A program made the translations under genes and the position numbers. A DNA stretch of 64,000 nt from a virus, in the IMG/VR virus record IMGVR_UViG_3300005614_000040, positions 1 to 64,000 of that record; one strand, written 5' to 3'. Shown here piece after piece: positions 10,379 to 49,257 of this stretch (positions are counted from its first letter, which is position 1; the number at the start of each line of letters is the position of its first letter). Below the pieces are notes generated by a model. The model had not been told where the DNA came from. It did not search any database and was given only the letters and a program-made list of their open reading frames with translations.

Positions 10379-10486
10379 GCGTATGCGTATAGCTATTTTG
10401 CTGATCGGTGCGTTTTTGCTGTTCAACGGACACCCTATTCGCCGGAGGATGGATTATATTCTTCGGCTAGGAGATTGGGAGAAATA

Positions 10487-25849: not shown

Positions 25850-26098
25850 ATGCCTCTGAGGTTGGGTGACGGGAGACTTATGGGTAGAAGCCCGCGCTAC
25901 GCCCTGGTCTTGTCCGCAATCCTCCAGCTAGAGTCAGACAATGTTGAGTCTGGGCCGTACTGGATGTGCGTGGACGAGAAAACCGTAACTATTGCCTACC
26001 AAGCAAAACATACCGACAAAGCCACCATGCTTGTGATCCCGCGCCAGCACTTCGAGACCTTGTTGGAGTGGTACGAAACCGAACAATCGATTACCTAA
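25850..26098 (+). CDS. hypothetical protein
   Basis: Coding composition is good, but the start is uncertain (25820, 25850 or 25880). Confidence 0.35.
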   Translation: MPLRLGDGRLMGRSPRYALVLSAILQLESDNVESGPYWMCVDEKTVTIAYQAKHTDKATMLVIPRQHFETLLEWYETEQSIT

Positions 26099-26099
26099 T

Positions 26100-27359
26100 A
26101 TGAATCTACGCCCCGAAAAAATCCAGCAAATTCGAGATTTTGCAACGGCTAACCCCGGTGTGTCCGACCGGGCCATTGCTAAAGCCCTCAAGGTCAGCCG
26201 CGATGCAGCAGCCAAGTATCGTGGAGAACGTAAGGCAGAAGAAACCGAAGAGTCACAGATGACGGCCGACACCTGGACGTTTGAAGCAAAGACCCGGGAA
26301 CGGATCACCACCCTTGAGGATTTGGTCGCGTTCTGCAAGATCGACCTGGACGTGTGGGATGTAGAACGTTGGGTCGCGAACAAGTGGGAGGTTGGGGCCA
26401 ACATCGACGGCAAGCTCACCGTCGAACCGCTCTACCAGGTTAAGGCTTTCATGCGCAAGCGCCAAGGTATGGTGGCCGCCCGGCAAGAGATCGAAGACCT
26501 GAAAGAACTCGCCAAGAAGGAGTTCCCGGCGCGCGTTCCGCCCAAACCTACCAAAGAAACCGGGCTGATGCTCGAACTGAACCTGAGCGACGCCCACCTG
26601 GGCAAGCTCGCGCATACGGACGAAACCCGGGGGCCGAACTACGACACCCGGATCGCCGAGAGAACATATCGCCGGGCCTTCTACGCACTCCTTGACCGCA
26701 CGGCAGGTTACGAGTTCGACGAGGTGTGGTACGTGGTTGGCAACGACGTAATGCAGAGCGACGACCCCGAGGGCCGCACCACGGCCGGAACCTACGTCTC
26801 GACCGACGGCCGCTACTACAAAACCTTCAAGATCGTCAGATCACTAATCATCGAAAACATCGAAGAACTCCGTAAGCGCGCCCGGGTTGTCCGCGTCATC
26901 GTTGTTCCAGGTAATCACGACGAACGCAGTTGCTTTTTCCTGGGCGATTCGATAGAGTGTTACTTCGCCAATCAACCTGATGTAGTTATCGACAACGAAC
27001 CCAAGCGACGGAAGTACCACACCTTCGGTAAAGTCCTGCTGGGCCTGACTCACGGGCACAAAGGCAAGCACGCTGACTACCCTATCCTCATGGCCACCGA
27101 GGTTCCGGAGATGTTTGGCGCGAGCCGCCATCGCGAAATGCACTGCGGGCACAAGCACAAAACCCAGTCAGACATTACCAAGATCAGGGCCGTCGATGAA
27201 GCTCACGGCGTTCGCGTCCGGATTCTGAGCGCGCTCACCCCGGCCGATTCCTGGCACTCAGACAACGGGTTTGTCGGCAACCTGCGCGCGAGCGAAGCGT
27301 TCGTGTGGCACAGAACTGAAGGGCTGATTGCGACTGCGGTGTATACGGAGCCAGATTGA
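26100..27359 (+). CDS. N-terminal HTH + calcineurin-like metallophosphoesterase
   Basis: A helix-turn-helix is seen in 'GVSDRAIAKALKVSRDAAAKY'. Phosphoesterase motifs are 'VIVVPGNHDE', 'LTHGHKGK' and 'CGHKHK'. Confidence 0.5.
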   Translation: MNLRPEKIQQIRDFATANPGVSDRAIAKALKVSRDAAAKYRGERKAEETEESQMTADTWTFEAKTRERITTLEDLVAFCKIDLDVWDVERWVANKWEVGANIDGKLTVEPLYQVKAFMRKRQGMVAARQEIEDLKELAKKEFPARVPPKPTKETGLMLELNLSDAHLGKLAHTDETRGPNYDTRIAERTYRRAFYALLDRTAGYEFDEVWYVVGNDVMQSDDPEGRTTAGTYVSTDGRYYKTFKIVRSLIIENIEELRKRARVVRVIVVPGNHDERSCFFLGDSIECYFANQPDVVIDNEPKRRKYHTFGKVLLGLTHGHKGKHADYPILMATEVPEMFGASRHREMHCGHKHKTQSDITKIRAVDEAHGVRVRILSALTPADSWHSDNGFVGNLRASEAFVWHRTEGLIATAVYTEPD

Positions 27360-27808
27360 TGGTAGATATTTCCGACTTGGCCCTTGGCACTGCCGCAGAG
27401 CATTTGGTCTGCGCTGACCTTTTGCTGGCAGGATACCGTGCGTTTTTAGCTGACCAGAACTGTCCCTATGATGTGGCAGTTGATACAGACCAAGGAATGA
27501 TTAAGATTCAGGTTAAAGCCACGCGAACCGTTAGAGCGATCCCGCAGCGGCGGGAGCACAAGGCCGCGTATATGTTCCACGTAAGACGTGCAGGCAAAAA
27601 GGGAAAACGAGTTTACGCTGAAAACGAGTTCGATTTACTCGCTTTGGTTGCGGTCGATGTTAAACAGATCGCCTATCTTCCGCCTAGCAAGCAGCGAATG
27701 ACCGTCCACATACGCGCAGAGGGACAATATTCCGGCACCAAACAAGGGAAAACTTTTTCTGACTACGCATTAACCGCCGCCTTGGAGGAAATTCGTGCCA
27801 AAGTTTAA
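27356..27808 (+). CDS. PD-(D/E)XK nuclease, Hjc-like (archaeal-type Holliday junction resolvase fold)
   Basis: The segment 'GTAAEHLVCADLLLAGYRAF...PYDVAVDTDQGMIKIQVK' matches an E...D...(E/Q)xK pattern. Confidence 0.5.
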   Translation: MMVDISDLALGTAAEHLVCADLLLAGYRAFLADQNCPYDVAVDTDQGMIKIQVKATRTVRAIPQRREHKAAYMFHVRRAGKKGKRVYAENEFDLLALVAVDVKQIAYLPPSKQRMTVHIRAEGQYSGTKQGKTFSDYALTAALEEIRAKV

Positions 27809-29042
27809 ATTAATAAACGAGGATTGTCTTGGTCCCTTCGGCCTCGGCTCTTTGGAAGATAATAGCGTGGACAGTGTCACGACAGACCCACCGTATGAGC
27901 TTGGCTTCATGGGTAAGAGTTGGGACAGCACCGGGATTGCGTACGACACGCGCGTATGGACGGAGTGCTTGCGCGTGCTCAAACCAGGCGGCCATCTGCT
28001 GGCCTTTGGCGGCAGCCGGACATACCACCGCTTGGCCTGCGCGGTCGAAGACGCGGGGTTTGAGATCAGAGATCAAATCTTCTGGGTGTACGGGAGTGGA
28101 TTCCCGAAAAGTTTGGATGTGTCGAAGGCTATTGACAAGAGCTTGGGTCGCGACAACGACCGGACGTTCAAGTGTAAGAATCCCGCTGATCGCCCTTATA
28201 CCTATGCCGAAGGTGAAACATCGACGGGTTGGCAATCACCCATTCGTCCGGACAAAACCAACCCCGCGAGCGAAGAAGCACAGCAATGGGACGGATGGGG
28301 CACTGCGCTCAAGCCCGCTCACGAACCCATTGTCTTGGCCCGCAAACCTCTTGTCGGAACAGTCGCGGCCAACGTCTTGCAACACGGTACAGGCGCGCTC
28401 AACATCGACGCCTGCCGAGTTCCAGGTGAACCCGTGCCGATCAACAAGCTGGAGAGTTGGTCCGGCTTCGGGCAAGAGAAATGTCCGGATTACGAAGCCA
28501 CGGTGAATACCCAAGGTCGCTGGCCCGCCAACTTGATCCACGACGGCAGCAAAGAAGTGCTGGACGAGTTCGCAAAATACGGCGAAAGCAAGAGTGGCAT
28601 AGCAGTCCAACGCAACGGTGGGGGTCAAAAGATCGGCGGTAACGGAATCTACGCCGGGTCGAACGGACTGACAAGAGATGATGCTGGGTATGGTGATGCT
28701 GGGACCCCCGCCCGGTTCTTCTATTGCGCCAAAGCCAACAAAAAAGATCGCGGCGACAACAACCACCCTACGGTCAAACCCACCGAACTGATGCGCTATC
28801 TCTGCCGATTGATTACCCCGCCTGGCGGGACTGTTCTCGATCCGTTTATGGGAAGTGGTAGCACCGGAAAGGCGGCCCTGCTTGAAGGATTCAACTTTGT
28901 CGGAATTGAAAAGGACCCCGGATACTACGCCATCGCCGAGCGAAGAGTCGCCGCCGCTGATTCGAGTGTGCCTGACCTGCGGAACGACGCTGGTGGACTG
29001 GCGCTGCAAACTGTGGTGCCCGAACTGCTTTCAGTACCTTAG
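27795..29042 (+). CDS. DNA N6-adenine/N4-cytosine methyltransferase (beta class)
   Basis: It has the catalytic motif 'SVTTDPPYELGF' near the N-terminus and the SAM-binding motif 'LDPFMGSGSTGKAA' near the C-terminus. Confidence 0.85.
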   Translation: MPKFKLINEDCLGPFGLGSLEDNSVDSVTTDPPYELGFMGKSWDSTGIAYDTRVWTECLRVLKPGGHLLAFGGSRTYHRLACAVEDAGFEIRDQIFWVYGSGFPKSLDVSKAIDKSLGRDNDRTFKCKNPADRPYTYAEGETSTGWQSPIRPDKTNPASEEAQQWDGWGTALKPAHEPIVLARKPLVGTVAANVLQHGTGALNIDACRVPGEPVPINKLESWSGFGQEKCPDYEATVNTQGRWPANLIHDGSKEVLDEFAKYGESKSGIAVQRNGGGQKIGGNGIYAGSNGLTRDDAGYGDAGTPARFFYCAKANKKDRGDNNHPTVKPTELMRYLCRLITPPGGTVLDPFMGSGSTGKAALLEGFNFVGIEKDPGYYAIAERRVAAADSSVPDLRNDAGGLALQTVVPELLSVP

Positions 29043-29242
29043 CTGCGGAGACTTCTATTGAGCTACCTACTTTTCGCCCGTCTCCGAGATATTTCGTGCC
29101 CTTGGTTTGTGGTTAGCCTGACCACTTTTTCCGAGGCCGAGGCCAGGAAACTTGTCCAGAAATTGGACAAAGAGAACTGGGAGTACACCTATGCACACGC
29201 ATCCGAGAAAAAAATCCTAGACCCACCGAAAGAGGTACACTA

Positions 29243-29554
29243 ATGGAAACCGAATTCAGCACTAACCTCGAACCCAGTCAAACGGAACTTCTCGCCTGGC
29301 TCGCCGAAGAGTGCGGCGAGGTGGTGCAGATGGTCGGCAAAATCCTGCGGCACGGCTACGAGAGCTACCATCCGGCACGTCGAGATGGCCCCAGCAACCG
29401 ACAGAAGCTCGCCGAAGAACTAGGTAACCTGCGCCTCGTCCAGATCATGTTGATTGCGAGTGGCGACCTCGACGTTCAACTGATCGAGAAGTCATTCCGA
29501 GCCAAAATGGACACGGCCAGCAAGTACCTGCACTTCAACCAAATCGAGGACTAA
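29243..29554 (+). CDS. MazG-like nucleotide pyrophosphohydrolase
   Basis: The MazG motif is 'LLAWLAEECGEVVQMVGKILRHG', in a small all-alpha protein. Confidence 0.6.
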   Translation: METEFSTNLEPSQTELLAWLAEECGEVVQMVGKILRHGYESYHPARRDGPSNRQKLAEELGNLRLVQIMLIASGDLDVQLIEKSFRAKMDTASKYLHFNQIED

Positions 29555-30103
29555 ATGATTCTGGGAATCTGCGGCCGGGCCGAGGTCGGAAAGAGTACGG
29601 TCGGCAAAGCCATCGTCAAGACGGCCGTCTACATGGAACTGGACGCCAAGGTCTACGAGCTTTCGAACTATGTATTGGCCGAGGCCATTGAATCAGGTGC
29701 CATTAAAAACAAAACTCGGGCGGAGTGTACGCCCGAGGACATTCTGGAACTTGTCAGGATCGGCACAGCGGGCCGGGCCAAGGACCAAGACTACTGGATG
29801 AACAAGCTCCGCGACGACGTAGAGAAAGACAAACCGCAAGTAGCCGTCTGCCCTAACATCAGGTACGTCTCTGAAGCCGACGCCATTCAACGCTGGGGCG
29901 GCAAAGTCATCCGGGTGACGGCGCTAAACGCGGACGGCACCGAGTTTATATCCAGGAGCCGCGACCCGAACGACCCGAGCGAAACGAACCAGCGGCTCAT
30001 CATCGCCGACTACTACCTTACTACCCGGCGCGGCGAGAGCGACCTGCTGAAGCTCCAAGCGTCGGCGCTGTTCAAGTACCTGCACGGCCGGAGGAGCCAA
30101 TGA
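29555..30103 (+). CDS. P-loop nucleotide kinase (dNMP kinase-like)
   Basis: It has Walker A 'GICGRAEVGKST'. The ORF is 182 aa and abuts mazG. Confidence 0.5.
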   Translation: MILGICGRAEVGKSTVGKAIVKTAVYMELDAKVYELSNYVLAEAIESGAIKNKTRAECTPEDILELVRIGTAGRAKDQDYWMNKLRDDVEKDKPQVAVCPNIRYVSEADAIQRWGGKVIRVTALNADGTEFISRSRDPNDPSETNQRLIIADYYLTTRRGESDLLKLQASALFKYLHGRRSQ

Positions 30104-30267
30104 AGCACAAGGTCCGCAAAGCCACGACCGAAGAAGCTCAACAAGACTGTTGTGGAGATCGCTATCCGTGCTACGTCGATATGGTGTGCTCCTGCGGTTT
30201 GAAGCTCTGCAAAATGGACATGCTCGAACACCTGCTGCAACTTCATGGAGGTTCCCGTGCCCGATAA
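30100..30267 (+). CDS. small Cys-rich protein
   Basis: Its ATG overlaps the kinase TGA. It contains 'DCCGDRYPCYVDMVCSCGLKLC'. Confidence 0.3.
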   Translation: MKHKVRKATTEEAQQDCCGDRYPCYVDMVCSCGLKLCKMDMLEHLLQLHGGSRAR

Positions 30268-30844
30268 CTTCGCAGCCGTGCCCAAACCCGTACGTGATGA
30301 TGCCTTTATCTATAGTTACTCAGGATCGAGGATAGGGCTAGGCCACGCACCCCCTTCTCTGGAAGACATCGCAGTTTCGCTCGGACGACTGTGCCGTTTT
30401 ACGGGACACTGTCGAATTTTCTATCCGGTCCTGCTGCACAGCATGGCGGTGTCCGATCTTGTCCACGTCGAGAACACCCGGGCCGCGTTGCTGCATGATG
30501 CTGCCGAGATTTATCTTAGCGACATCCCGACGCCCTTCAAAGCGCCGGAGATGAAAGCCATCGAGATGCGTTTACTCATGCCCATCTTCTCAAAGTACTT
30601 GGACCAGTACGAACTACTAGAGTGGGTCGGCCGGGGCCACGAATTAGTGAAGGTGGCGGATCGCGAAGTATTTACCGCCGAGGTCCATCTACTCGGATGT
30701 GCGGGTCTGCGGGCTTGGGTAGGTGAGTCATACCCGGATGTCGAGGAAAAGGTGCAAGAGTACATCGACCGTTACCCTATCGAGGAATGTGTGCGCCCGG
30801 ACGGAAAAGCCGTGATCGAATTCATCAGGAGAGCTAGGCAATGA
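30245..30844 (+). CDS. HD-domain 5'-deoxynucleotidase (YfbR-like)
   Basis: The segment 'HSMAVSDL...ALLHDAAEIYLSDIPTPFK' matches the YfbR HD...GD.PTP.K signature. Confidence 0.65.
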   Translation: MEVPVPDNFAAVPKPVRDDAFIYSYSGSRIGLGHAPPSLEDIAVSLGRLCRFTGHCRIFYPVLLHSMAVSDLVHVENTRAALLHDAAEIYLSDIPTPFKAPEMKAIEMRLLMPIFSKYLDQYELLEWVGRGHELVKVADREVFTAEVHLLGCAGLRAWVGESYPDVEEKVQEYIDRYPIEECVRPDGKAVIEFIRRARQ

Positions 30845-31185
30845 TCCCAGATTCCGACGACCTCTACCGAAACTCAGTGGTGGTGAAGATGCAGGGTGGA
30901 ACTGACCGCGAGGACACCAACCTCTGCGGATCGTGCCGCCATTCCCATATCTTTACTGAAGCGGCGCGCGGTGAGAAAACTGTATTCTGCTGCTACGACG
31001 TACGCGTACGGATGAAGGGGCCAATCTCCCAGTGCAACAAACACAGTGACCGCAACCAACCATCGCTGCACGACATGAACGAAATCGCCTGGCAGCTTCA
31101 AACCAACAAGGGCCGCCACGTCGGTTTCCTTAGCCCCGAGGAACTACGAACCAAAGGTAAGACAAGCGGCGGATTCATGGTATAA
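30841..31185 (+). CDS. hypothetical Cys/His-rich protein
   Basis: It contains 'CGSCRHSHIF...FCCYD...CNKH'. Confidence 0.4.
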   Translation: MIPDSDDLYRNSVVVKMQGGTDREDTNLCGSCRHSHIFTEAARGEKTVFCCYDVRVRMKGPISQCNKHSDRNQPSLHDMNEIAWQLQTNKGRHVGFLSPEELRTKGKTSGGFMV

Positions 31186-31191
31186 TGGATT

Positions 31192-31629
31192 ATGATTTGG
31201 ACAGACAAAATGCGACTGGCTGTTGGCTTCGCCACCGAGAAACATTGGGGCCAGGTGGACAAGGCGGGCCAGCCCTACATCCTTCACCCGTTGGCCGTAG
31301 CTGAAAGTCTGCTACCCTACGGTGAAGATGCGTTTATCGCCGGGGTGCTGCACGACCTCATCGAAGACACCAACACTACGGTCGCTGAGATCATCCACCA
31401 CTTCGGGGTGACGATTGGTTTGGCCGTAAATGCAGTCTCCAGACGCGAAGGTGAGGTCTATGTCGATTTCATCGCCCGGGCCGACCAGCACCCTCTAGGC
31501 CGCCTGGTAAAGATCGCCGACCTGCGGCATAACCTTTCCCCGGCTCGGATGGCGAACCTGCCGCCCGAGATGGCTGGGATCGACCGCCGCTATAAAAGAG
31601 CTTTACAAGCGATGGGTGAAGAGGTATAG
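31192..31629 (+). CDS. RelA/SpoT-type HD hydrolase (small alarmone (p)ppGpp hydrolase)
   Basis: The segment 'KHWGQVDKAGQPYILHPLAVA...AGVLHDLIEDT' matches the SpoT/Mesh1 HD domain pattern. Confidence 0.8.
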   Translation: MIWTDKMRLAVGFATEKHWGQVDKAGQPYILHPLAVAESLLPYGEDAFIAGVLHDLIEDTNTTVAEIIHHFGVTIGLAVNAVSRREGEVYVDFIARADQHPLGRLVKIADLRHNLSPARMANLPPEMAGIDRRYKRALQAMGEEV

Positions 31630-31808
31630 TAAAAATGTACCTTGCGCCCTGTGCTCTAGCGTAACTTCTCTCTAGGCGGAAGAAAAGGATACTCTGACAC
31701 GCTTTTTCTTGGTACAAATCCCCGGCCCGCAGATCAGACGGTAAAGGGTGAGGGTGACATAGACGTTACGACCAACTAGAGCATGGGGCGGAAGGTACAG
31801 CCCAAAGC

Positions 31809-31832
31809 AAAGCCCCCTTTCGGGGGCTTTTT
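31809..31832. terminator. bidirectional rho-independent terminator between convergent arms
   Basis: The sequence aaagccccc-tttc-gggggcttt forms a 9-bp GC stem. T-runs lie on both strands, and it overlaps the stop codon of the giant minus-strand gene. Confidence 0.6.
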
Positions 31833-34800
31833 ACTGCTCTGAGGCGGCTGGTTCCTGCCACATCTGCCGGATGCGGAGGAAGGTCGGGTCTTTCGCCCGT
31901 TCCTCCGGACTCATGTCCTTATACGCCTTTTGCATGTAGCGCTTCTTCTTTCCCGTCATCACCTTGGTCATGGCTGTACGCTCGCGCGGGGTAGCCAACT
32001 CCCACACCTGGAGAGCGTCGGCCATATCCATGCGGTTGACGGTCGAGACCATGCGCGCCGTCTGCGGGTCCATCCCGGCCGTCATCTTCACGTTGTCCTT
32101 GATCTTCTTGATCTCGTCGTGCGGAAGAGTCGAGAAGTCTTTCAGGTCTTCGAGTTGACTGAAGGTCATTCGGCCGGAGCGCAAATCATCCTCAAACCGG
32201 GATACTGCCTGGAGGCGCGACCGCTGGGTCGAGGTCATCAGGCCGGATTCGTTCTTCTCGGAGGCGAGCTTGGCCGCCAAGGTCTGAGCCTGAGTCCGGT
32301 ACACGTCCGCCGTCAAACCACCCGCTTTGGCAAGTTGGCCCGCGTTGGTGATGTTGGTATTGCCCGAGATCGCGGACGCCACGGCCTGCGCCGGGATCGG
32401 GGCCATGTTGCTGGCCAGGTCAACCCAAAGGCTTCCAGGAGAGAGCTTGCGGCCGTATACGTCCTGGCCTGTCACAGCCTCCTGGCCCATGCGCGCGAGC
32501 GGCGACAGCCGACCCTTCATAAACCCTTCGGGGTCGGACGCCATGTGGAGGATGTCGGTCGGCATGGTACGGATCGAATAGATCACGTCCTGGCCGTTCT
32601 TGTCCTTGGTGGCTACGCCGAACGGAGCTTCGAGGTGAGGGTTGCCGCTGTTGACCATGTTGAGCACGCGCGCCGCACCCCAAAGTCCGGCTGCCATGAG
32701 CAAGACCTGGTTACGGGCGAAGTTCTTGTCGCCGAGGCCGCCGCGTAGCGTAGAAGCTGCAAACCGCATTTCCGATTCGAGCCAGTCCGGAGCGAGCGCA
32801 AACAACCGGAACCAGTCCTGCGTTGCTGCAGCCCGGCCCATTGCCCGCCAGTTCTGTCCACCGAAGGCGTTGTTGACGTGCTCGGCCGCTGCCGATGCGA
32901 CGGCGCGCGGTTCCCAATCCGGGTGGGCCGCTGCATACTTGTCGTACATCTTGAGAGCGGCGTCGGCCTTGAGCGAAGGCATGTAGCGGTTGAACAGAAA
33001 GTCCTGGTACCAATCCATCGTCTTGCCGAGGATGGGGATTTTGGCCAGGATTTTGCTGTGAGACGCGAGACCTTCCGAGTGCTCGGACAGCGCCCGGCGA
33101 TCCATCGCGAAGGTCGCACCCTGGATGGCCATGCTGCGCAGCTTGCGAGCGCGGTCGAGTTCCGTCTGGGCTGCCTGCAAATTCTGGGCGTGCTCGGGCG
33201 AGTTCGGATTGGAGCTTGCTTCCTTCTGGGCGTCGTTAACCGCCTGCCTCAAACGGCCAATGGCCTCTTGAGTGAAGCTGTCTACTGGGTGAACCTTGAG
33301 CGGGTTGACTCCCAGCATGACGCCACGGAGAGCTTCCTGCATCATGTGGAACGGGCTGAGCGAGAGCAAGACGCTCTTGGCTTCGCTGCCAGCGGCGAGC
33401 AACGGCTTGGTGATCCGGCCAAAGCCTTCGTTCTTGGTCAGCGGGGATTCGTCGAGACCCAGCGCGTTCGTGAGGTATGGCGCGTACTCCGGGTGGATCG
33501 CGATCTCACCTTGCACAAACACAGGGTTGCCAGCCGCGTCCTTCGCTACCCAGTGGATGCCAGGCAGGTACTTGGGCGGGGTGACGTAACCTTGCGGGTG
33601 CCACACGTATGCGGGCGTCTGGGCGTCGTTGATCTTCTGGAGGGCGTCCTTGGGCAAGACTCCGCTCTGAACGTCCTTCAACGTCCGGAGGTGTTCCTTG
33701 AGTTGTGGGTACTTTGTGTTGGTCGCGGCGTCGCGCACCTGGGCGACGTGGCGCGCGCTGAAGCTGTCGGCAGCCTGAATCCACTTTCCGTTCGGGCCTT
33801 GGAAGGCTTGCTTCGACCAATAGGAGCGCAGGTCAGCGGGCATCACCGATCCATTTTGTGGAACTGTCTGGTTCGCGGTATGGGTCCGGCCGTACGAATC
33901 GATTAGTTCGTCGATGAAGGAGTTGAAGGCTTCTTTGCCAGCGCCTCCTTGAGCGCCGTTCCCCCCTTCTTGTACGCCTCGAACAGTTCCTCGATTCTGG
34001 AGTTGCTTGGATACGCTATCTTTTTCATGGGCTACAAATTCCTCTCTTAGTTTGCGTGCAGTGCCGATTACGCGAGTCAGGGTTTTGAACGCGTCGCTGC
34101 CGTGCCGTTCTTCAACCGCAGCAAAGTACTTCCGCAGCCAGGACTCTTCTTCGTCCGGCGTCACTCCCATTGTATCGCGGTCGCCCGCCATCAGTTTGGC
34201 CGCCGTTTCAACGACACGAGTAACGGGGTCGGACTCGTATTCGTTGTGGGTCAAGTAGACTTGGGCTGCGCCGGGAATCTGCTGGTCGAGATCATGCCAC
34301 TGCGCGCCGTACAGGTGGCGGCCAACCGTTCCGTCCGGCGAGACCTCGGACTGCCAAGCGTGGTTAATTTCTTCCCGCGCCGTTCGGGTCAGATAACTTA
34401 GGCTACGGCCTTGCCCGCCGATCACAGTCACAGGCCGACCCTCTGCATCTCTCGCCGCTTCCGCGACAAGCTGGCGGAGTCCGGAACCAACGTTCTTTGC
34501 GAGGGTGGACTGGCCTACCGTGTATCTACGCTCGATGTCTCCGAGCAAGCGCGGAACCTCACTTGGCTCCAAACTGACGCCTTCAAGTGCAGCCCGTCCA
34601 TACGGATTGAGGATGTGGCTCAGCAACGTCATCGCCGAGCGCGAAAGCCACAGTATCTTGTGGCCGGACGCGTCCGCGCGAACTTCACCGACTTTCGGTG
34701 AATCAAGGTTGTCGAGACTATCCTTTGCGATTCTGAGACGCGTCACGGTGTCTGGGTCACCGGGGCGCTGTTCGTTGAGCTTGCTGAGTTGCTGAACGCG

Positions 34801-37800
34801 TTCGCTTAACGCCAACCGCGTTTGGGCTAACTCATCGCTGTCCGGACGGTCAACGCTCAGAACTACTTTTCGGTAGTTCCCGAGTTTGGTACCCTCTGGA
34901 TTATCTTGGATACCCCGTCCTCGGGTTGAACGTGATTCATTGTTACGCCGTTGGGCAGCTTCACGGAGGACAGAATCGTAGGTGGCTTTTGGCCCGGGCG
35001 GACCAGACGTTTGTGAGTGCTCGTATAGATGTTCTCCGTATCCGTAGGCGTAGTCAAAGGGGTCTTGGGCGAAGTACTCATGGAGTTTAGATAACCTTTC
35101 TTGACCCGCTTTGGACCTGGGGTCAGTGTCTATAATGTGGACAAACGAGCCGTCCGGATGCTGCTCTATTGTAGCACCATCGACGCCTGCTTTTCTCAGC
35201 CATTGGACAGCCTTGGCCGTGTCCATACCACTCAAGTGGATGGTGTACTGGACGTGCGGGCCAGTGGCGTCGTTGTGCCAGAGCAAAACTGACTTCTGAT
35301 TTTCTGCCTTGCCGCGCAGGGCCGCAGCGGTGCGCAGGTCGAGGAGGTCGCCCTTGCCTTCAGAAACCAGCGAAGGCTCTCCGTCTGTTCCGCCGCCCCC
35401 GTGACTCCAGATGCCTGTAGCCTGCTTATACTGCAGGTCTAGGCCGTACTTCTTGTCGATGTTGGCCGCGCGGGTCATCGCCTGCTTGACCTCGGGACTG
35501 TTGGCCTGGGCGATGGCCTGCTCTAAGTTGAGGTCGGCCTGGTTCGAGGACGCGAAGATTTGTCCTTCAACCTGGTTGCGCACCGGGGCTGGGGCGGGGT
35601 TGGCCGCCTGGCGCAACAGGTTTGCGATGTCCTTGTCGGTGTACGGACGTGTGCCGTCACCCGTCAACCCTTGGGCGTGGTTGCGGAACTTGGCGACGTA
35701 GCGGTCGAGATCAGCCTGTTCAGTCTTGGTGCGAACTTCCTTCGACGCAATCAACTGCACCCAACCCGGAACGTTCAGGTTGCGCGGGATCGGCTCGCCT
35801 TTGTCGATGGCGTCCTGCAGACTTTCGACCACCCGGTTCGAGTAGTCGGTCAGGAACTCGTGGGTCTCGTCGAGCGCCCGGCGTGATCCGGCCTGGTCAA
35901 GAATGTTCGGGTTCCGTTGTTCGTGCGCCTCGATTTCTTTCTGGATATTTTGTACCCACTCGGTAATGTTGGTGGGGTTGACGCGCGGGGTCACATCGCG
36001 AACCGCGCCCGAGCGCAAGTGGCGTTCGAGCATCCCGCTCGCAATCATGTTCTTTACATCGTTGGCCGCGATGCTGATGCTCTGAAGCTGGTTGGGGAGA
36101 ACCAGGATGTTGGGGTCTCCGCCGTTGCGCGCCGCGAGAGTGTCGCCTGCGCCCCGCAGGACCGCCGCTGGCAAGCCGTCAGACCCGCGCACGCCCGCCG
36201 CGCGAATGGCCTTGAACCAGTTCACGTTGGCCGCGATAGTACGCAGGCTCTCGACACCGTATCCGGTAAGCTGGACAGGGTCGTCAGTCAAGAGTTCATG
36301 GCCGCGCATCAGACCTTCGAAGATCGATCCGTAAACGCGGTGCATCGCCTGGGTTGCCTTCAGGTCGAATCTGCCGGAGCGGACCTCGTTGCGCCACGCA
36401 CCGACAGCCTTGTCAGCGTTCTCTCCAAATACACGCTGGATGTAGTTATCGACGTAGGAGTGGATCACCCCGGCCTTCGCCGCAGCGGTCCAGTTTTCGT
36501 CATTCACCTTGCGGAACTTATCGACCAGCGCGAGTTCGTCAGGTGACAACCCTTGGGCGACCTTGTGATACGCCTCGGCCCAATCCAAAAGCTGTTGCTT
36601 GCCTTTTTCGGTCAAGCCCTCGTCACCGCGACGGATGAGTTCCTGAAGGTCGTCCGGCAGTCCTGGGTGCTGGCCCGCGCCCGTCGTAGACTCTCCCGGC
36701 ATCGGAGATGGGAGTTCAGCGCCCTGCACGTTCGGGCCTTCGTTCGGCACCGGGGCGAGTTCCGGCCGGGACGCGGTGGCCGCGTCGTAGGGCAGGATTT
36801 TGTCCAGCATCCCGAACCGTTGATAGATCGAGTTACCTGCTTGGCGGGCCTTCTCTGTGTCGGCTACACCTGTGTCGAGGGCGGCCGTTACCCAGCGCTT
36901 CGCCTTGGTGCGAGCTTCAATGGCTTCCTTGCCCTCAAACTGAGCGGCGAGGTTCTTCGCGCCAGCCGCAAACAAATTACCGTAGTACTCGGGCTTGCCA
37001 AGCTCACCGTTCAGAGTGTTCTCGACGTTGCGAGCTTCGTTGGCCGCAGATTCAATATCACCGTCGCGAACCGCTGTGATCGCACGAACCTTCTGTGCTT
37101 CCTGGGTCGGAGCAAGACGCTCGACTTCATTGACCGCAGGCATGAACTCCCCGGCTTTCGCCAGGGTGTATTTGATACCAAGCAGACCGAGTCCGCCGCT
37201 GAGGATGGCTTCGGTCAGCTTCTCGTTAGCGCCGTCGTAGTTGCCTTCCTTCCAATCGTCGAGCACGCCCGGGAACATATGCGCAGCCTGGTAAACTTGG
37301 GGCGCAGCGAAACCAAAGTTGATCGCCGCTTCCATGCCCTTGGCTACCTTCTGTGCCTGGGCCGGGGTGGTATCGCCGATGGCGCGGAACGCCTTCGACA
37401 TCGCGCGCTCAGCGAGATTACCACCAACGAAGTCGGACTGCGCGGTGAGGTCCGCGTCGTGCAGGTAGGTGTTCAGTGCGAGGTAGCGGTTGTAGTCCAT
37501 ACCGCTGTCTGCTACAGCCTGGGCGATTGGCTTGCCCGCGCGCTGGGCGTCCGTGGCCGCCTTGATCGCTTTTCCGAACTGTCCGATCTGGGCGTCGGCC
37601 GCAGCCGCATCTAGGCCCTCTGCGCCGCCCATGAGGGTGTCGCGGAGAACACTGGCCCCGGCTGATTCAATCAAGCTGCCTTCACCAAACGTGAGCGCGC
37701 CTAGCCCCAAAGAAAGAGGCGAGGTCAAACCAGTCAGGAACTTCTCGACGCCGCGCTCGATACCACCAGCGCCCGGCCGCGAGTCGTGCCAACCCAACAC

Positions 37801-38079
37801 CGACTCAGTCAACGGTGTGTTGACGCCCTCCCAGAGTTTCTGGTACCAAGGCGCGTTCGGGTCTTCGATAGACGCAGGTGCGCCCCCACCCAAAGGCGGA
37901 GGCGCAGGGGTGCCGACCCGGTACTGAGCGAACTGGTCAGCAGGCGGAGTTGGGGTTGCCGGGGTTGAAGCCGGGGCTGCACTCTGGCCAGCAGGCTTTA
38001 CCGCGTACTGAGCAAACGGGTCGGCTGGAGCGGGAGTGGCAGTGGAACGGTACTGTGCAAACGGATCGTCTTGCGCCAT
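31831..38079 (-). CDS. giant virion-associated protein (2082 aa); T7 gp16-like internal core/ejection protein by position
   Basis: A single clean ORF carries no recognised catalytic motifs. It is the last gene of the structural operon, after gp14- and gp15-like Q/A-rich proteins. Confidence 0.6.
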   Translation of the reverse strand: MAQDDPFAQYRSTATPAPADPFAQYAVKPAGQSAAPASTPATPTPPADQFAQYRVGTPAPPPLGGGAPASIEDPNAPWYQKLWEGVNTPLTESVLGWHDSRPGAGGIERGVEKFLTGLTSPLSLGLGALTFGEGSLIESAGASVLRDTLMGGAEGLDAAAADAQIGQFGKAIKAATDAQRAGKPIAQAVADSGMDYNRYLALNTYLHDADLTAQSDFVGGNLAERAMSKAFRAIGDTTPAQAQKVAKGMEAAINFGFAAPQVYQAAHMFPGVLDDWKEGNYDGANEKLTEAILSGGLGLLGIKYTLAKAGEFMPAVNEVERLAPTQEAQKVRAITAVRDGDIESAANEARNVENTLNGELGKPEYYGNLFAAGAKNLAAQFEGKEAIEARTKAKRWVTAALDTGVADTEKARQAGNSIYQRFGMLDKILPYDAATASRPELAPVPNEGPNVQGAELPSPMPGESTTGAGQHPGLPDDLQELIRRGDEGLTEKGKQQLLDWAEAYHKVAQGLSPDELALVDKFRKVNDENWTAAAKAGVIHSYVDNYIQRVFGENADKAVGAWRNEVRSGRFDLKATQAMHRVYGSIFEGLMRGHELLTDDPVQLTGYGVESLRTIAANVNWFKAIRAAGVRGSDGLPAAVLRGAGDTLAARNGGDPNILVLPNQLQSISIAANDVKNMIASGMLERHLRSGAVRDVTPRVNPTNITEWVQNIQKEIEAHEQRNPNILDQAGSRRALDETHEFLTDYSNRVVESLQDAIDKGEPIPRNLNVPGWVQLIASKEVRTKTEQADLDRYVAKFRNHAQGLTGDGTRPYTDKDIANLLRQAANPAPAPVRNQVEGQIFASSNQADLNLEQAIAQANSPEVKQAMTRAANIDKKYGLDLQYKQATGIWSHGGGGTDGEPSLVSEGKGDLLDLRTAAALRGKAENQKSVLLWHNDATGPHVQYTIHLSGMDTAKAVQWLRKAGVDGATIEQHPDGSFVHIIDTDPRSKAGQERLSKLHEYFAQDPFDYAYGYGEHLYEHSQTSGPPGPKATYDSVLREAAQRRNNESRSTRGRGIQDNPEGTKLGNYRKVVLSVDRPDSDELAQTRLALSERVQQLSKLNEQRPGDPDTVTRLRIAKDSLDNLDSPKVGEVRADASGHKILWLSRSAMTLLSHILNPYGRAALEGVSLEPSEVPRLLGDIERRYTVGQSTLAKNVGSGLRQLVAEAARDAEGRPVTVIGGQGRSLSYLTRTAREEINHAWQSEVSPDGTVGRHLYGAQWHDLDQQIPGAAQVYLTHNEYESDPVTRVVETAAKLMAGDRDTMGVTPDEEESWLRKYFAAVEERHGSDAFKTLTRVIGTARKLREEFVAHEKDSVSKQLQNRGTVRGVQEGGNGAQGGAGKEAFNSFIDELIDSYGRTHTANQTVPQNGSVMPADLRSYWSKQAFQGPNGKWIQAADSFSARHVAQVRDAATNTKYPQLKEHLRTLKDVQSGVLPKDALQKINDAQTPAYVWHPQGYVTPPKYLPGIHWVAKDAAGNPVFVQGEIAIHPEYAPYLTNALGLDESPLTKNEGFGRITKPLLAAGSEAKSVLLSLSPFHMMQEALRGVMLGVNPLKVHPVDSFTQEAIGRLRQAVNDAQKEASSNPNSPEHAQNLQAAQTELDRARKLRSMAIQGATFAMDRRALSEHSEGLASHSKILAKIPILGKTMDWYQDFLFNRYMPSLKADAALKMYDKYAAAHPDWEPRAVASAAAEHVNNAFGGQNWRAMGRAAATQDWFRLFALAPDWLESEMRFAASTLRGGLGDKNFARNQVLLMAAGLWGAARVLNMVNSGNPHLEAPFGVATKDKNGQDVIYSIRTMPTDILHMASDPEGFMKGRLSPLARMGQEAVTGQDVYGRKLSPGSLWVDLASNMAPIPAQAVASAISGNTNITNAGQLAKAGGLTADVYRTQAQTLAAKLASEKNESGLMTSTQRSRLQAVSRFEDDLRSGRMTFSQLEDLKDFSTLPHDEIKKIKDNVKMTAGMDPQTARMVSTVNRMDMADALQVWELATPRERTAMTKVMTGKKKRYMQKAYKDMSPEERAKDPTFLRIRQMWQEPAASEQ

Positions 38080-46222: not shown

Positions 46223-46682
46223 AGTGCTCCAAAAGTGTGGCCATCGAATGAGAACCTTGGCCGTAAGTGTTTCCTGGGAAGCTTGCCCAGATGTTTGAGC
46301 AGGCTTCGATAGCGCCTTGGACGTTTCCAGCCAACACCATGTCAACGGCTCTGCGTTCGTCCATTTGTTGGATAGCCACGGCGTCTTGGGACGCGGGAGA
46401 GAAATCGGACAGACCTAATTTGAGCTTGTACGGTTCCCACCAACGGTAGAGGATTTGATACCTTCCGGACGCCGTTGAAAAGGTCGGGGGGGTTTGGCGG
46501 AACTGTATCGGCCTGCGATGGTATTGGGGGGCGAAGGGGTGATCGTCGTAATCCAGCATCCGGTGTGGACCGTCAATACCGCTGACAATGATGTCGTAAC
46601 CCCGGTCTTTAGTGATCGGACTTGTGCTGGTTCCCTCAGACCATGCAACCAAATCCAGAAACGCAACGAGTTTGGGGTCCAT
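46215..46682 (-). CDS. endolysin, lambda R-type lytic transglycosylase (GH104)
   Basis: Across the ORF, 'FLDLVAWSEGTS...GYDI...GRYQ...DFSP.SQDAVA...CSNIWASFPG..YGQ' lines up with phage lambda R lysozyme. Confidence 0.85.
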   Translation of the reverse strand: MDPKLVAFLDLVAWSEGTSTSPITKDRGYDIIVSGIDGPHRMLDYDDHPFAPQYHRRPIQFRQTPPTFSTASGRYQILYRWWEPYKLKLGLSDFSPASQDAVAIQQMDERRAVDMVLAGNVQGAIEACSNIWASFPGNTYGQGSHSMATLLEHYA

Positions 46683-48964
46683 TATTGAATTACCACGGTG
46701 CCGCTGAACACCACACTGGGACCAATGGTAGCGCCGCCCGCCGGGGGGTTAATCGTGTACGCCGCCGATGTAATGCTACTGTTGGTGAAACTTGGGCAGC
46801 CTTGAACTTGGGCATACACTGTTTCCGAGCTTGAAACTGTCAAGGGGTTGGTGGCGCTTACGCCTGTCAGATTTCCACCTGACTGTGCGTTGGTAGTGTT
46901 CCATACCAAGTACGCAGTGCAAGCCGAAGTCGCGGTCGAGAGAGTAACCGACTGCGCGCCCGCATACGTTCCTGCGACCGGAGAGAATGTAGGAGAGGAC
47001 GCAACGGGCGTACCGCTTGGTTCGTACGCACCAATCGTCGGTGGGTTCGGCCGAGGTTCACCTGCGTAGTCTACGGTGATACCAGAGATCGCTACACCCG
47101 CGCCTACGACGGAACTCGCTCCGCTGGCCGGAATCATGTTGCCGTATCCGTAGGGGTGCCAAGTCATGTCCGTCAACTGCGGGCTGACGCAGAGCGCACT
47201 TGACTCGCTGGCATTAGGACACGTCCAACTTCCGCGATATCCAAAGTAAGAGTTGTTTGTCCAACTCGCGCCGGGGTTGGTCGTCAGCGCGCTAAAATCC
47301 CCTGTGGTGAAAATGGGTGTGGGGTTTTGCGAGTTATCGGGGTTCAGAAACCCAACAAATATGTTGTTGTTGTATTGCAGAACATTGGTCGTACCATGAT
47401 CGCCCGTCGCATACTCGAACTCAAAGCCGATGTTTCCTGCCGTAAAGATGGTGTTGTCCTGAAACTTGGTCGGCGTCCCAGGGGACGTGGTTACCAGCAC
47501 AGGCACATTCCCGGCCCGGCAAGCGTTCGCCAGATCGTCTTGGGTGGGCACTGGACGGCCAGGGATAACATTCTGCAGGACAGCATAGCAGTTACCAACG
47601 ATCAAATTGTTGCGAACCGTTGTACCTCCGCCTCCCGCTTTAAACTGCTGACCCTCGTTTCCGTAGGCGAGCGTTCGTGTGATGGTAATAGTTGAACCCG
47701 CACCCGCGATGTGGAGTCCATCCAACCCGTCCTGCATGTTGTAGCTGACGATACCTTGGTCGAAAATAACATTCCACGGGCTGAGACTGTCGATAGAAGC
47801 TGTGCCCCAACCGTCTCCGTAGCCCCCCGTGCCTTGATCGCGGCAACTGAAATAAGGAACCGAATCAACGATGGGGTATTCTTCTGCGCAGCCGTTCCAG
47901 CTAATTTCCCAATTAGTCCAGGTGGTGTTTCCGATACCTGCGATTCCGGAACCGTTATCGGCGTTCCAACCAGAGTCTTGGTTGCCGAGAAGGGCGATGT
48001 CTGTCGCGGTCAGGTCTCCACCCGGAGGGCCATTAATTCCGTCTGACGCAACACCGTGAATCCGAATATCAGTTAGGGTGATGTGTGCGGTAGCGTTAGT
48101 TATCGTGATGCCGTTCTTGGCGAAATCGGAGATGACATTGCCACCTCCGTCTTTGCAGGCGACGGCTCCGTTTTGTAGACCACACGCCGAAAAGTCTGTC
48201 AAATCAAGACAGGCCACGTCTACGTACGTTGAGCCGTTCAAGCCCAACACCTGCCCTACTCCCCAACCACCATGAAGCTGAGTTCTGGCGTTTTGCGCCG
48301 TACACGACCCGAAGTTGCCGCCGAGGATGCGCGTATGCGCGCCAGATGTTCCGGAAGGCGGCGGGGGCATACCACTGCTGAACTGGTCGTGATATAAACC
48401 CCAGCAATTAGCACCATCCATTGTTAAGCAGTTGACGCTGTTCGGCCACCCGAGCCGATAACTCACATTGTCGGCGATTGAACCACGGATGATGTATGTG
48501 TCTCCGCCCGTCCCGATCCACCCCCAATTAGGGAAAGTCGAACCACCGTCAGCATACGCGCCGTCTTGGTATAACATTCGTGCGTCGTTGAACGCGCAGT
48601 GCTGGTTCACTGGGTACGTCGATCCACTTACGGTGTAGACGGCAGTGCCCCCCGTGCCCGAGACGATACCGCTGGTCGGCCAGGTAATTGCGGTGCCGGA
48701 CGTACCGCCCGAGGTGACTGTCGCATAGTGACCGTTCGGAACATACACTGTCGTTCCCAAGGTCTCAGCCACCGAGGGCTGCCAGTACTCGCCCGCCGTG
48801 GCTCCGCTGGCCGCGACATAGGATACGTCTGCGGTGCCGTCGCATTGGCCGTTGGTAATGTTGGTTGAATTGCGAGTGCCGCCGTCCGGCCGTACGTACC
48901 AGGTCGAAGCGAACGCCCCCGCAGAACAAATCCAGAATGTGAATAGAGTTAGAAATTTTTTCAT
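46682..48964 (-). CDS. secreted right-handed parallel beta-helix protein (tailspike/depolymerase-like) with Sec signal peptide
   Basis: An N-terminal signal peptide 'MKKFLTLFTFWICSAGAFAS' is present. Beta-helix repeat signatures include 'VRNNLIVGNCYAV' and 'YNNNIFVGF'. Confidence 0.65.
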   Translation of the reverse strand: MKKFLTLFTFWICSAGAFASTWYVRPDGGTRNSTNITNGQCDGTADVSYVAASGATAGEYWQPSVAETLGTTVYVPNGHYATVTSGGTSGTAITWPTSGIVSGTGGTAVYTVSGSTYPVNQHCAFNDARMLYQDGAYADGGSTFPNWGWIGTGGDTYIIRGSIADNVSYRLGWPNSVNCLTMDGANCWGLYHDQFSSGMPPPPSGTSGAHTRILGGNFGSCTAQNARTQLHGGWGVGQVLGLNGSTYVDVACLDLTDFSACGLQNGAVACKDGGGNVISDFAKNGITITNATAHITLTDIRIHGVASDGINGPPGGDLTATDIALLGNQDSGWNADNGSGIAGIGNTTWTNWEISWNGCAEEYPIVDSVPYFSCRDQGTGGYGDGWGTASIDSLSPWNVIFDQGIVSYNMQDGLDGLHIAGAGSTITITRTLAYGNEGQQFKAGGGGTTVRNNLIVGNCYAVLQNVIPGRPVPTQDDLANACRAGNVPVLVTTSPGTPTKFQDNTIFTAGNIGFEFEYATGDHGTTNVLQYNNNIFVGFLNPDNSQNPTPIFTTGDFSALTTNPGASWTNNSYFGYRGSWTCPNASESSALCVSPQLTDMTWHPYGYGNMIPASGASSVVGAGVAISGITVDYAGEPRPNPPTIGAYEPSGTPVASSPTFSPVAGTYAGAQSVTLSTATSACTAYLVWNTTNAQSGGNLTGVSATNPLTVSSSETVYAQVQGCPSFTNSSITSAAYTINPPAGGATIGPSVVFSGTVVIQ

Positions 48965-49257
48965 TGCTTTTTCGCCTGGCAAGTTAGGGTGGTCAGGTCC
49001 GGCGTCCCGTCAGCTTTCAACTTCGCGGCGGTGCAGCTAAACAGATATGTCGCGGGAGGTGGAGGAGGGATCGTGTACGCCGGGATTGTTATGGTCTTGG
49101 ACGGGCAGGTCTGCTGGGGGATGGTAAGTTTGGTCGCACCTTTGGGGATAGACAAAGTGTACGAAGGCGACACGCAGCCCGGGATCGTAAGAGTGACCGA
49201 AGGAATCGTCTGCGCGCTGGCTGATGCGCTTAAGAGTATGAGAAGAAGGATTCGCAT
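48961..49257 (-). CDS. small secreted protein
   Basis: It has the signal peptide 'MRILLLILLSASASAQ' and four Cys. Confidence 0.45.
   Translation of the reverse strand: MRILLLILLSASASAQTIPSVTLTIPGCVSPSYTLSIPKGATKLTIPQQTCPSKTITIPAYTIPPPPPATYLFSCTAAKLKADGTPDLTTLTCQAKKQ

Follow-up and report, generated by a model that had tools for sequence, protein, structure and literature searches.

A 64,000-nucleotide (nt) stretch of viral DNA, positions 1 to 64,000 of IMG/VR record IMGVR_UViG_3300005614_000040 (hereafter the window), carries a block of seven tightly packed open reading frames (ORFs) on its + strand at 29058–31629, which closes a long rightward replication arm at its 3′ end. The last of these encodes a 145-residue HD-domain protein that very probably belongs to the Aph1 family of small alarmone hydrolases. 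Its predicted substrate is (p)ppApp, not (p)ppGpp, because it is a member of that family and its base site does not resemble those of SpoT and Mesh1. As a whole, the region is mosaic: the early (replication) operon of this uncultivated phage ends, at its 3′ side, in three elements that are independent of one another. On balance, the overall account that we favour is that these elements are a conserved gene pair handling deoxynucleoside monophosphates (dNMPs), an optional MazG-like gene, and a stand-alone Aph1-type hydrolase. A preliminary description had instead suggested that 29243–31629 is one functional unit of four adjacent genes whose enzymes act on nucleotides or alarmones. Its observation is confirmed, as the four enzyme genes lie on the + strand at the expected positions and match their families well beyond chance, while its interpretation is partly right. 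The window corresponds to positions 12–64011 of a public metagenome contig of 74,477 bp (ENA ERZ27252105, k141_4674152), and the rest of the genome beyond it (~9 kb) was judged from the public Pfam record.

The hydrolase gene occupies 31192–31629 (+). The public gene call starts at 31210 and yields 139 residues. The start at 31192 is backed by the N-terminus M[IT]WT[DN]KMRL, which the protein has in common with P0002, its homologue on the metagenomic fragment L032. The protein matches Pfam HD_4 at 39 bits (cut-off 27.2) and phrog_990 at 7e-38, also matches TIGR00691 spoT_relA, and contains the motif GQPYILHPLAVA...LHDLIEDT, which had been quoted as a strong SpoT/Mesh1-type match. This holds insofar as the protein is a small alarmone hydrolase of the RelA/SpoT homologue (RSH) type with all catalytic residues in place; its base site and its profile matches, however, are Aph1-like. 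The best sequence match in the Protein Data Bank (PDB) is Aph1 (7SMG, 3.1e-19), which ranks above all Rel, SpoT, Mesh1, and small alarmone hydrolase entries. Similarly, a profile of 48 family sequences scores 166 bits (4.8e-48) against Aph1, across residues 8–144 with small gaps only, and no more than 90 bits against (p)ppGpp hydrolases.

The C-terminal part of the protein is particularly informative, as its last ~53 residues in Aph1 (Y90–E143) are the criterion by which Ahmad et al. separate (p)ppApp from (p)ppGpp hydrolases (PMC10083569). The equivalent comparison was made here with phmmer against the PDB, whereas the original authors used jackhmmer against UniProt. For the last 57 residues of the hydrolase, 7SMG is the only match below E = 0.1 (E = 0.013); the next, at E = 0.91, is unrelated, and no (p)ppGpp hydrolase is matched. 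An AlphaFold2 (AF2) model of the hydrolase, with a predicted local distance difference test score (pLDDT) of 97.1, has eight main helices of at least eight residues each. In a Foldseek search, four 7SMG chains are the top matches to this model over the whole chain, with template modelling (TM) scores of 0.84–0.85 relative to the query (TMq) and 0.84–0.88 relative to the target (TMt). Longer hydrolases (Mesh1, PaSAH, RelH) reach a TMt of at most 0.68, because they have extra helices that are absent from the 145-residue protein. The predicted model has the compact eight-helix fold of Aph1, without the helix 0 and helix 9 that other hydrolases have.

Residues of the metal and catalytic sites are invariant in 48/48 family members and align with those of both Rel and Aph1. 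They comprise the metal site (H32, H54-D55, and D110), the catalytic ED pair (E58-D59), and the ribose-contacting asparagine N114. The loss of Mn-binding histidines and aspartates, which would have spoken against the earlier assignment, is not seen, as H32, H54, D55, and D110 are all present. The alarmone hydrolase is genuine, and it is probably active.

The residues around the base further distinguish the protein from (p)ppGpp hydrolases. Residues D23-K24-A25 correspond to D24, K25, and A26 of Aph1, at a place where TtRel has the guanine-binding R43, R44, and S45. The R-R-S residues of TtRel contact guanine, and joint mutation of D24 and R119 gave Aph1 measurable ppGpp activity (PMC10083569). 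Most of the Aph1 signature is retained: D24 (here D23; D in 47/48 relatives), R96 (R96), R119 (R119; R in 42/48), and Y134 (Y134; invariant in 48/48) are kept, and K133 is conservatively changed to R133 (R in 28 relatives, K in 20). D116 is not kept. It is replaced by S116, which on alignment is a common variant within the family (D in 25/48 relatives, S in 10/48, and others in the rest). The Asp-Lys-Ala triad and R119 would disfavour guanine. Aph1 and 12/12 purified homologues hydrolysed ppApp, with modest ppGpp activity in only two of these homologues (PMC10083569). Strict exclusion of ppGpp is consequently less certain, given S116 and these two slightly promiscuous enzymes. A search of 50,697 phage records found hydrolase homologues in 468, and the fold of the protein is common to many phage proteins. 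Searches of the hydrolase block against PADLOC and NCBIfam gave no PADLOC matches and no useful NCBIfam matches.

Comparison with related phages shows that the block has not been inherited as a whole. Six related contigs (L021, L022, L023, L027, L028, and L029) were found via exact-protein look-ups of homologues of the HD phosphohydrolase, and gene presence or absence was scored in them by tblastn and profile searches. Scans of IMG/VR gave no relatives when made with the C-terminus of the giant protein encoded next to the block or with the kinase, and four distant ones only when made with the HD protein. The six relatives have a common layout, in which the replication arm leads to the block site and then to a convergent giant gene. 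The kinase and HD genes are present in 6/6, either adjacent or one or two small ORFs apart, and their coding regions abut or overlap in most. By contrast, the MazG-like gene is present in 1/6 (L021, where a 368-residue AAA protein is encoded between it and the kinase), orf114, the ORF preceding the hydrolase gene, in 2/6, and the hydrolase in 0/6.

The closest homologue of the hydrolase (P0002, 68% identity) lies on L032, a 1.8-kb fragment of another relative, where its position is equivalent: the order is orf114, an extra 89-residue ORF, the hydrolase, and the end of the giant gene. L032 and the hydrolase-less L021 come from the same sample and sequencing run. More distant loci show the same partitioning. 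Among 59 metagenomic loci with a kinase homologue, 42 could be evaluated downstream, and the HD gene directly follows the kinase in 18 of these. A hydrolase or MazG match occurs in 0/59, within fetched flanks of up to 4 kb on each side. Likewise, 20 other phage-like hydrolase loci (four of them copies of one gene) have no MazG, kinase, or HD homologue in the fetched flanks, which extend up to 6–10 kb where the contig allows. In Tunturiibacter phage Tunturi_4, the hydrolase (gp55) is located ~29 kb from the HD phosphatase (gp101), which is next to the DNA polymerase and dUTPase genes. The pair is thus recurrent, and the MazG-like and hydrolase genes are sporadic. It follows that the pair is the unit, and that the other two are separate accessory genes that share the end of the arm in this phage. 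The idea of one functional unit is therefore not supported, as only the kinase and HD pair is conserved.

The first gene of this pair, at 29555–30103 (+), encodes a 182-residue P-loop kinase with a nucleoside monophosphate (NMP)-kinase fold. It matches phrog_139 ‘dNMP kinase’ at 1.8e-15 and Pfam DNMK (PF21448) at 18.3 bits, below the cut-off of 27.1, and G12-K13 of its P-loop is invariant in the family. The single sequence has no match in the PDB, but the family profile matches animal phosphomevalonate kinase (8e-9) and the T4 dNMP kinase 1DEK (1e-3). The AF2 model (pLDDT 96.9) has the NMP-kinase fold, and Foldseek places the phosphomevalonate kinase 3CH4 first (TM 0.74; 0.70–0.74 for animal phosphomevalonate kinases) and 1DEK fourth. 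Pfam matches among 54 family members are similarly divided, with 22 to DNMK and 24 to P-mevalo_kinase. Since both reference enzymes phosphorylate a phosphomonoester, the label ‘dNMP-kinase-like’ given in the preliminary description is fair.

The second gene of the pair encodes a YfbR-like HD phosphohydrolase of 199 residues at 30245–30844 (+), for which the public call starts at 30257 and gives 195 residues. The protein matches phrog_318 ‘dNMP phosphatase’ at 1.6e-28 and Pfam YfbR-like (PF12917) at 17.8 bits, below the cut-off of 25.9. Eight residues (H65, H84, D85, E88, D93, K99, D139, and E146) are invariant in 25 homologues, and they include the H...HD...D metal site and the HDxxExxxxD motif. 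Profile matches in the PDB are to Atu1052 (2GZ4, 4.7e-24), YfbR (2PAQ, 2.5e-7), and DatZ (1.6e-5).

The pair most likely handles dNMP pools during replication. It would manage the dNMPs freed by nucleases that break down DNA: the kinase would route wanted dNMPs towards dNDPs and dNTPs (the di- and triphosphates), and the HD enzyme would dephosphorylate those that are unwanted or in excess. Phage T5, which has a dNMP kinase and a 5′-deoxyribonucleotidase, offers a parallel. The earlier suggestion that the kinase and nucleotidase could serve dNTP salvage fits the comparative data, in which the pair is conserved.

The surroundings of the pair and of the hydrolase vary in other phages. In L022 (8603–13555), genes for four glycosyltransferases, a Methyltransf_21 protein, and a metallophosphatase come after the pair; they replace orf114 and the hydrolase and could serve DNA or cell-surface modification. 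In L030, the adenylosuccinate-synthetase-family gene close to a distant HD homologue is possibly PurZ-like and has a ParM-like segregation gene nearby. This setting recalls Z-genome clusters, and none such is seen in the window. At another locus (L003:9232–10450), a hydrolase homologue with 54% identity overlaps the end of a gene for an RlaP-family nucleotidyltransferase, a partner unlike any gene of the window.

The remaining enzyme of the block is encoded by an accessory gene at 29243–29554 (+). Its 103-residue product is a MazG-like all-alpha nucleoside triphosphate (NTP) pyrophosphohydrolase, which matches Pfam MazG (PF03819) at 27 bits (cut-off 22) and phrog_4856 at 8.7e-15. A search against the PDB gave only spurious matches to DARPins. 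Four homologues (the window protein and three others) all retain E22, E23, and E26 (EExxE), E59, and an HGYES motif. The second metal motif of canonical MazG proteins is ExxD. It is not found here, as the window protein has N62 at the position of the aspartate and the three homologues have H, Q, or N. The MazG of cyanophage S-PM2, the only phage MazG tested for alarmones, showed neither binding nor hydrolysis of (p)ppGpp, its preferred substrates being dGTP and dCTP (PMC6850273). The MazG-like protein is an NTP pyrophosphohydrolase that probably acts on (d)NTPs rather than alarmones, and no support is seen for a role of its gene in the stringent response.

From the family membership of the hydrolase, its intact catalytic residues and predicted fold, its presence or absence among relatives, and the lack of a detectable toxin partner, we infer that its gene most likely stands alone and serves in counter-defence or immunity against toxins that make (p)ppApp. 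Using its His/Asp-bound metal, the enzyme would cut the 3′-pyrophosphate off (p)ppApp, releasing ATP or ADP (AMP from pApp) and pyrophosphate. It could thereby neutralise (p)ppApp made by toxic small alarmone synthetases (toxSAS) of the host, such as FaRel, or by injected Tas1-like toxins, and it might also undo 3′-pyrophosphorylation of tRNA. ATP would thereby be spared and translation would continue, in infected or lysogenic cells alike. Activities of this kind are known from other phages. The stand-alone hydrolases of phages PVP-SE1 and SSU5 neutralise every one of the five tested toxSAS toxins (PMC7229694), the SSU5 hydrolase takes off the 3′-pyrophosphate modification of tRNA (PMC11245113), and toxSAS systems defend against phages (PMC9712102). 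That close relatives vary in whether they have the hydrolase is consistent with an accessory gene for counter-defence or immunity.

Pfam scans of window ORFs other than the tail-fibre-like ones at 46682–52798, searches of the 2082-residue neighbouring protein, and the public Pfam record for the genome beyond the window revealed no RelA_SpoT synthetase and no MuF domain. Since no synthetase toxin was found in the phage, the hydrolase most likely works alone. Whether the gene was recently transferred was also considered, and the test was uninformative: its G+C content (0.578) and its G+C content at third codon positions (GC3, 0.678) are within the range of the genome (GC3 0.667 ± 0.065).

The preliminary description proposed a different role, in which a SpoT/Mesh1-type (p)ppGpp hydrolase and MazG lower host (p)ppGpp and so switch off the stringent response. 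Several properties of the hydrolase are compatible with this: it has the HD_4 domain and the spoT_relA match, it retains every catalytic residue shared by Rel and SpoT, many database records name its homologues ‘(p)ppGpp synthase/HD superfamily hydrolase’, and both the modest ppGpp hydrolysis by 2/12 tested Aph1 homologues and the change of signature D116 to serine leave some room for such activity. However, the protein has D-K-A where TtRel has guanine-contacting R-R-S, just as in Aph1, which has no detectable (p)ppGpp activity. The counterparts of D24 and R119 are both kept, and Aph1 is by far the better match in profile as well as in fold. As to MazG, the tested cyanophage enzyme neither bound (p)ppGpp nor was active on it (PMC6850273), and the MazG-like and hydrolase genes are not co-inherited among relatives. 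We consider this proposal unlikely.

Two further readings accept the (p)ppApp chemistry and differ in who benefits. The hydrolase could be a moron, or lysogenic-conversion gene, that is expressed from the prophage and shields the lysogen from (p)ppApp-synthesising toxins that competitors deliver, either Tas1-type effectors of type VI secretion systems or MuF-Apk toxins of other phages, with no part in lytic growth. The phage encodes a tyrosine integrase, Aph1 itself shields cells from Tas1, and the gene varies in presence among close relatives. It is also the last before the terminator and the sole gene of the block without an abutting or overlapping predecessor, and a strong extended −10 sequence ends 6 nt upstream of its ATG. 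Yet such promoter-like sites occur at chance level and L032 has no TATAAT there, the gene is co-oriented with the replication operon so that lytic expression by read-through is equally plausible, and lysogeny of the phage is itself presumed. Departing from the favoured account only in timing and beneficiary, this reading is possible, though rather unlikely. Alternatively, the hydrolase could be the immunity partner of a (p)ppApp-synthesising toxin of the phage itself, perhaps a cryptic domain in the 2082-residue virion-type giant protein. The founding member Aph1 plays such a role for the MuF-fused Apk2 of a temperate Bacteroides phage, the hydrolase gene is convergent with and next to the giant gene, which it abuts in both contigs carrying the hydrolase (the window and L032), and relatives of the giant protein bear toxin-type domains. 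Against this, no RelA_SpoT, MuF, or other toxin domain was detected in the giant protein by Pfam (E up to 1), PHROG, or PDB sequence searches, and none such elsewhere in the genome, within the scope given above. Furthermore, no Tis1-like structural immunity gene was recognised, the giant gene is present in relatives without the hydrolase, and only 0.4% of Aph homologues are near a MuF gene (PMC10083569). This reading is very unlikely.

For the other enzymes, the main competing idea is that MazG, the kinase, and the HD protein, with or without the hydrolase, reshape the dNTP pool for a non-canonical base, as do MazZ, DatZ, and PurZ or the T4 dCTPase and dNMP kinase. The best single-sequence PDB match of the HD protein is indeed DatZ (E = 0.007), and the protein also has a weak match to phrog_7076 ‘dATP triphosphohydrolase’ (4.7e-4). 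In addition, a distant HD family member (P0139, 34% identity) is encoded ~350 bp downstream of an adenylosuccinate-synthetase-family gene in L030 (2464–4675), and glycosyl- and methyltransferase genes directly follow the pair in L022. At the profile level, however, DatZ is a weaker match than either Atu1052 or YfbR, and 5/6 relatives keep the pair without MazG. Moreover, the ORFs scanned and the public Pfam record contain no PurZ (Adenylsucc_synt), thymidylate-synthase-like hydroxymethylase, deazaguanine, or other base-modifying gene. The earlier suggestion of a modified-base pathway involving the two methyltransferases of the window fares no better, as these are DNA methyltransferases (Pfam N6_N4_Mtase, phrog_757). 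This idea is very unlikely. More speculatively, the pair may be an undescribed two-enzyme phage system that goes beyond ordinary dNMP salvage, by removing or converting dNMP-type danger signals or by supplying a non-canonical nucleotide. A precedent for such signals is m6-dAMP, which triggers the PUA-Cal-HAD defence (bioRxiv 10.64898/2026.01.15.699771). On this view the neighbouring Aph1-type hydrolase would be a mobile counter-defence gene directed at toxSAS, whose presence or absence varies among phage variants in one sample. Taken together, this extended proposal is unlikely.

A number of points weigh against the favoured account of dNMP-handling pair, optional MazG-like gene, and stand-alone hydrolase. 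For the hydrolase, signature residue D116 is replaced by serine, and strict (p)ppApp specificity is uncertain given that 2/12 tested Aph1 homologues had some ppGpp activity (PMC10083569). The toxin search left out the tail-fibre-like ORFs and ~1.5 kb of the 74.5-kb contig, and no published report was found of Aph1-type activity on pyrophosphorylated tRNA. To our knowledge, no (p)ppApp synthetase has been described for the presumed host, which is itself only inferred. For the pair, the nearest solved structures of the kinase are animal phosphomevalonate kinases, with T4 dNMP kinase a weaker match and Pfam DNMK below its cut-off. The closest solved relative of the HD protein, Atu1052, is uncharacterised, and the HDxxExxxxD motif also occurs in the dATP triphosphohydrolase DatZ. 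Finally, if the two enzymes shared dNMP substrates they would form a futile cycle, so that the salvage model needs a partition of substrates between them.

The block contains three small ORFs besides the four enzyme genes, and it begins with one of these, orf61 (29058–29243, +; 61 residues), just upstream of the MazG-like gene. From orf61 through orf114, neighbouring genes abut or overlap by 1–23 nt, and the hydrolase is the only gene set off from its predecessor, by a gap of 6 nt. The stretch previously described as four adjacent genes in fact holds six ORFs, since the 55-residue orf55 lies between the kinase and HD genes and the 114-residue orf114 between the HD gene and the hydrolase. No Pfam or PHROG match was found for orf61, and a homologue (48% identity over 44 residues) is located directly upstream of the MazG-like gene of L021. 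The Cys-rich orf55 (30100–30267, +) is possibly a spurious prediction: although the public record includes it, tblastn detected no homologue in the relatives, Pfam, PHROG, and NCBIfam gave no family match, and the kinase and HD genes of L021 overlap each other, leaving no similar ORF between them. The likewise Cys-rich orf114 (30841–31185, +) has homologues in L021 (76%), L032 (61%), and L029 (48%). A search of 5.8 billion proteins returned only three, the window’s own and two homologues, and there was no Pfam, PHROG, NCBIfam, or PADLOC match. As far as these searches can tell, orf114 is restricted to this phage group.

The promoter-like site upstream of the hydrolase (31159–31186, +) consists of AAGACA, a 16-nt spacer, and TGgTATAAT. 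Two such sites were found where 1.4 were expected, and a promoter belonging to the hydrolase alone was rejected as weak on account of this chance-level count and the absence of TATAAT from the corresponding place in L032. Downstream, the block had been described as lying right before a terminator. The terminator hairpin is real, although it starts 180 nt past the hydrolase stop rather than directly after it. It is located between the convergent arms at 31809–31830 and reads AAAGCCCCC TTTC GGGGGCTTT, with G+C-rich arms of 9 nt that are 100% complementary. On the + strand, an A-run precedes the stem and a T-run follows it, and this form therefore suits bidirectional termination. The intervening 180 nt (31630–31808) are non-coding, as are ~300 nt at this place in L021, which is without the hydrolase. 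No tRNA or Rfam match was found in the window, this stretch included.

The hairpin abuts the stop codon (31831) of the convergent giant gene (31831–38079, −), whose product of 2082 residues has no Pfam, PHROG, or PDB sequence match of any kind in the searches described above. Its relatives range from 1294 to 2401 residues and carry ART-PolyVal and DUF3293 domains in L023 and ART-PolyVal in L027. Residues ~1068–1410 of the giant protein have no tblastn match in the closest relative, L021.

The rightward arm that ends in the block encodes a family A DNA polymerase, a tyrosine integrase, a clamp-loader-like ATPase, ERF, a single-stranded DNA-binding protein, a primase-helicase, a processivity factor, endonuclease VII, a metallophosphatase-type exonuclease, a PD-(D/E)XK nuclease, and the two DNA methyltransferases. 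The integrase gene (2919–3953, +) is ~0.9 kb downstream of the polymerase gene, and the phage may therefore be temperate. The relative L028 has an integrase too, in its case near the end of the arm. The leftward arm includes SU10-type adaptor proteins, and an SU10-type portal is encoded in the part of the genome outside the window. A blastn comparison of 26000–32000 with 50,697 phage records matched a methyltransferase segment only, and no isolated phage is close in DNA sequence. Tunturi_4, which has an acidobacterial host, is among the best isolate matches for both HD proteins, and one related contig was binned with a Candidatus Sulfotelmatobacter genome. For these two reasons, the host is probably an acidobacterium.

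Two other parts of the window contain genes of separate interest. Inside the early arm, the stretch 4294–12343 (+) encodes an 814-residue protein that matches the Major Vault Protein shoulder and vault-repeat families of Pfam and has no PADLOC match. The same stretch also encodes two coiled-coil or transmembrane proteins, a 619-residue OmpA-domain protein, a polytopic membrane protein, and an ABC-transporter ATPase. Among the structural genes, a histidine phosphatase (His_Phos_1, 2.2e-26) is encoded at 58472–59125 (−), and is also present in the near-identical contig L031.

All four enzyme genes of the block are of known kinds for phages, and current concepts are unchanged by these findings. 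If the favoured account is correct, a stand-alone Aph1-type (p)ppApp hydrolase with no partner toxin is carried by a soil phage, probably of Acidobacteriota. This would strengthen the case that (p)ppApp toxins and defences matter beyond model organisms, and that phages have specific antidotes to them. It would also correct a common annotation habit, since both database labels like “ppGpp hydrolase” and the linking of MazG to the stringent response would be misleading in this case. The recurrent kinase and HD pair is the least understood piece and offers biochemistry a cheap, well-defined target.

Each element of the block has counterparts in known systems. The kinase has the P-loop NMP-kinase fold of T4 gp1 dNMP kinase (1DEK) and animal phosphomevalonate kinase (3CH4, 7XND), with 14–17% identity. 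It matches phosphomevalonate kinase better than T4 gp1 and, unlike T4 gp1, is tightly linked to an HD gene. The HD protein belongs to the same fold family as YfbR (2PAQ), Atu1052 (2GZ4), phrog_318, and DatZ (6ZPA), and has the H...HD...D site and HDxxExxxxD motif in common with them. YfbR acts on dNMPs and DatZ on dNTPs, and the sequence of the HD protein does not tell which of these it resembles in substrate. Like the phage enzymes S-PM2 MazG (PMC6850273) and MazZ of Z-genome phages, the MazG-like protein is a small all-alpha domain with EExxE that is encoded among replication genes, and it differs in having ExxN instead of ExxD and an extra conserved HGYES. The Z-genome cluster itself combines PurZ, MazZ, and DatZ, of which PurZ was not found here among the ORFs scanned or in the public Pfam record for the rest of the genome.

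The hydrolase shares the HD_4 domain, metal ligands, ED pair, and ribose-contacting asparagine with Rel, SpoT, Mesh1, and PaSAH. These enzymes differ from it in their guanine-binding R-R-S and extra N- and C-terminal helices, and their profile scores are lower by at least ~76 bits. Toxin-immunity and toxSAS-antitoxin pairs (Apk2-Tis1-Aph1, FaRel-ATfaRel) include a neighbouring synthetase gene, often fused to MuF or PAAR, which was not found among the ORFs scanned here. A parallel in organisation is provided by PaSpo of SSU5 and PbcSpo of PVP-SE1 (PMC7229694), which are likewise phage-encoded, single-domain HD enzymes of the RSH type without a partner toxin, and which neutralise toxSAS, as is proposed for the hydrolase. 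They are likened to the hydrolase by description and not by sequence, and no hydrolase homologue was found in the portion of the PVP-SE1 genome compared (its first 50 kb). PaSpo and PbcSpo may belong to another subfamily, and the substrates of PaSpo include pyrophosphorylated tRNA (PMC11245113), which Aph1-type enzymes are not known to attack.

The closest counterpart is Aph1 of Bacteroides caccae (7SMG; Ahmad et al. 2023, PMC10083569), a tetramer-forming protein that confers immunity to the MuF-fused (p)ppApp synthetase encoded by the same phage. Aph1 is accompanied by an adjacent gene for the MuF-Apk2 toxin and by the Tis1 immunity gene, neither of which was found here, where a stand-alone copy is located at the end of a replication operon. 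Its host is a Bacteroides, whereas that of the window phage is probably an acidobacterium, and its D116 is a serine in the window protein. Nevertheless, the two proteins are both phage-encoded, are of similar length (149 residues in Aph1 and 145 here; 32–34% identity in Foldseek alignments), and have the same compact eight-helix HD fold, the same metal and catalytic residues, and the same D-K-A triad.

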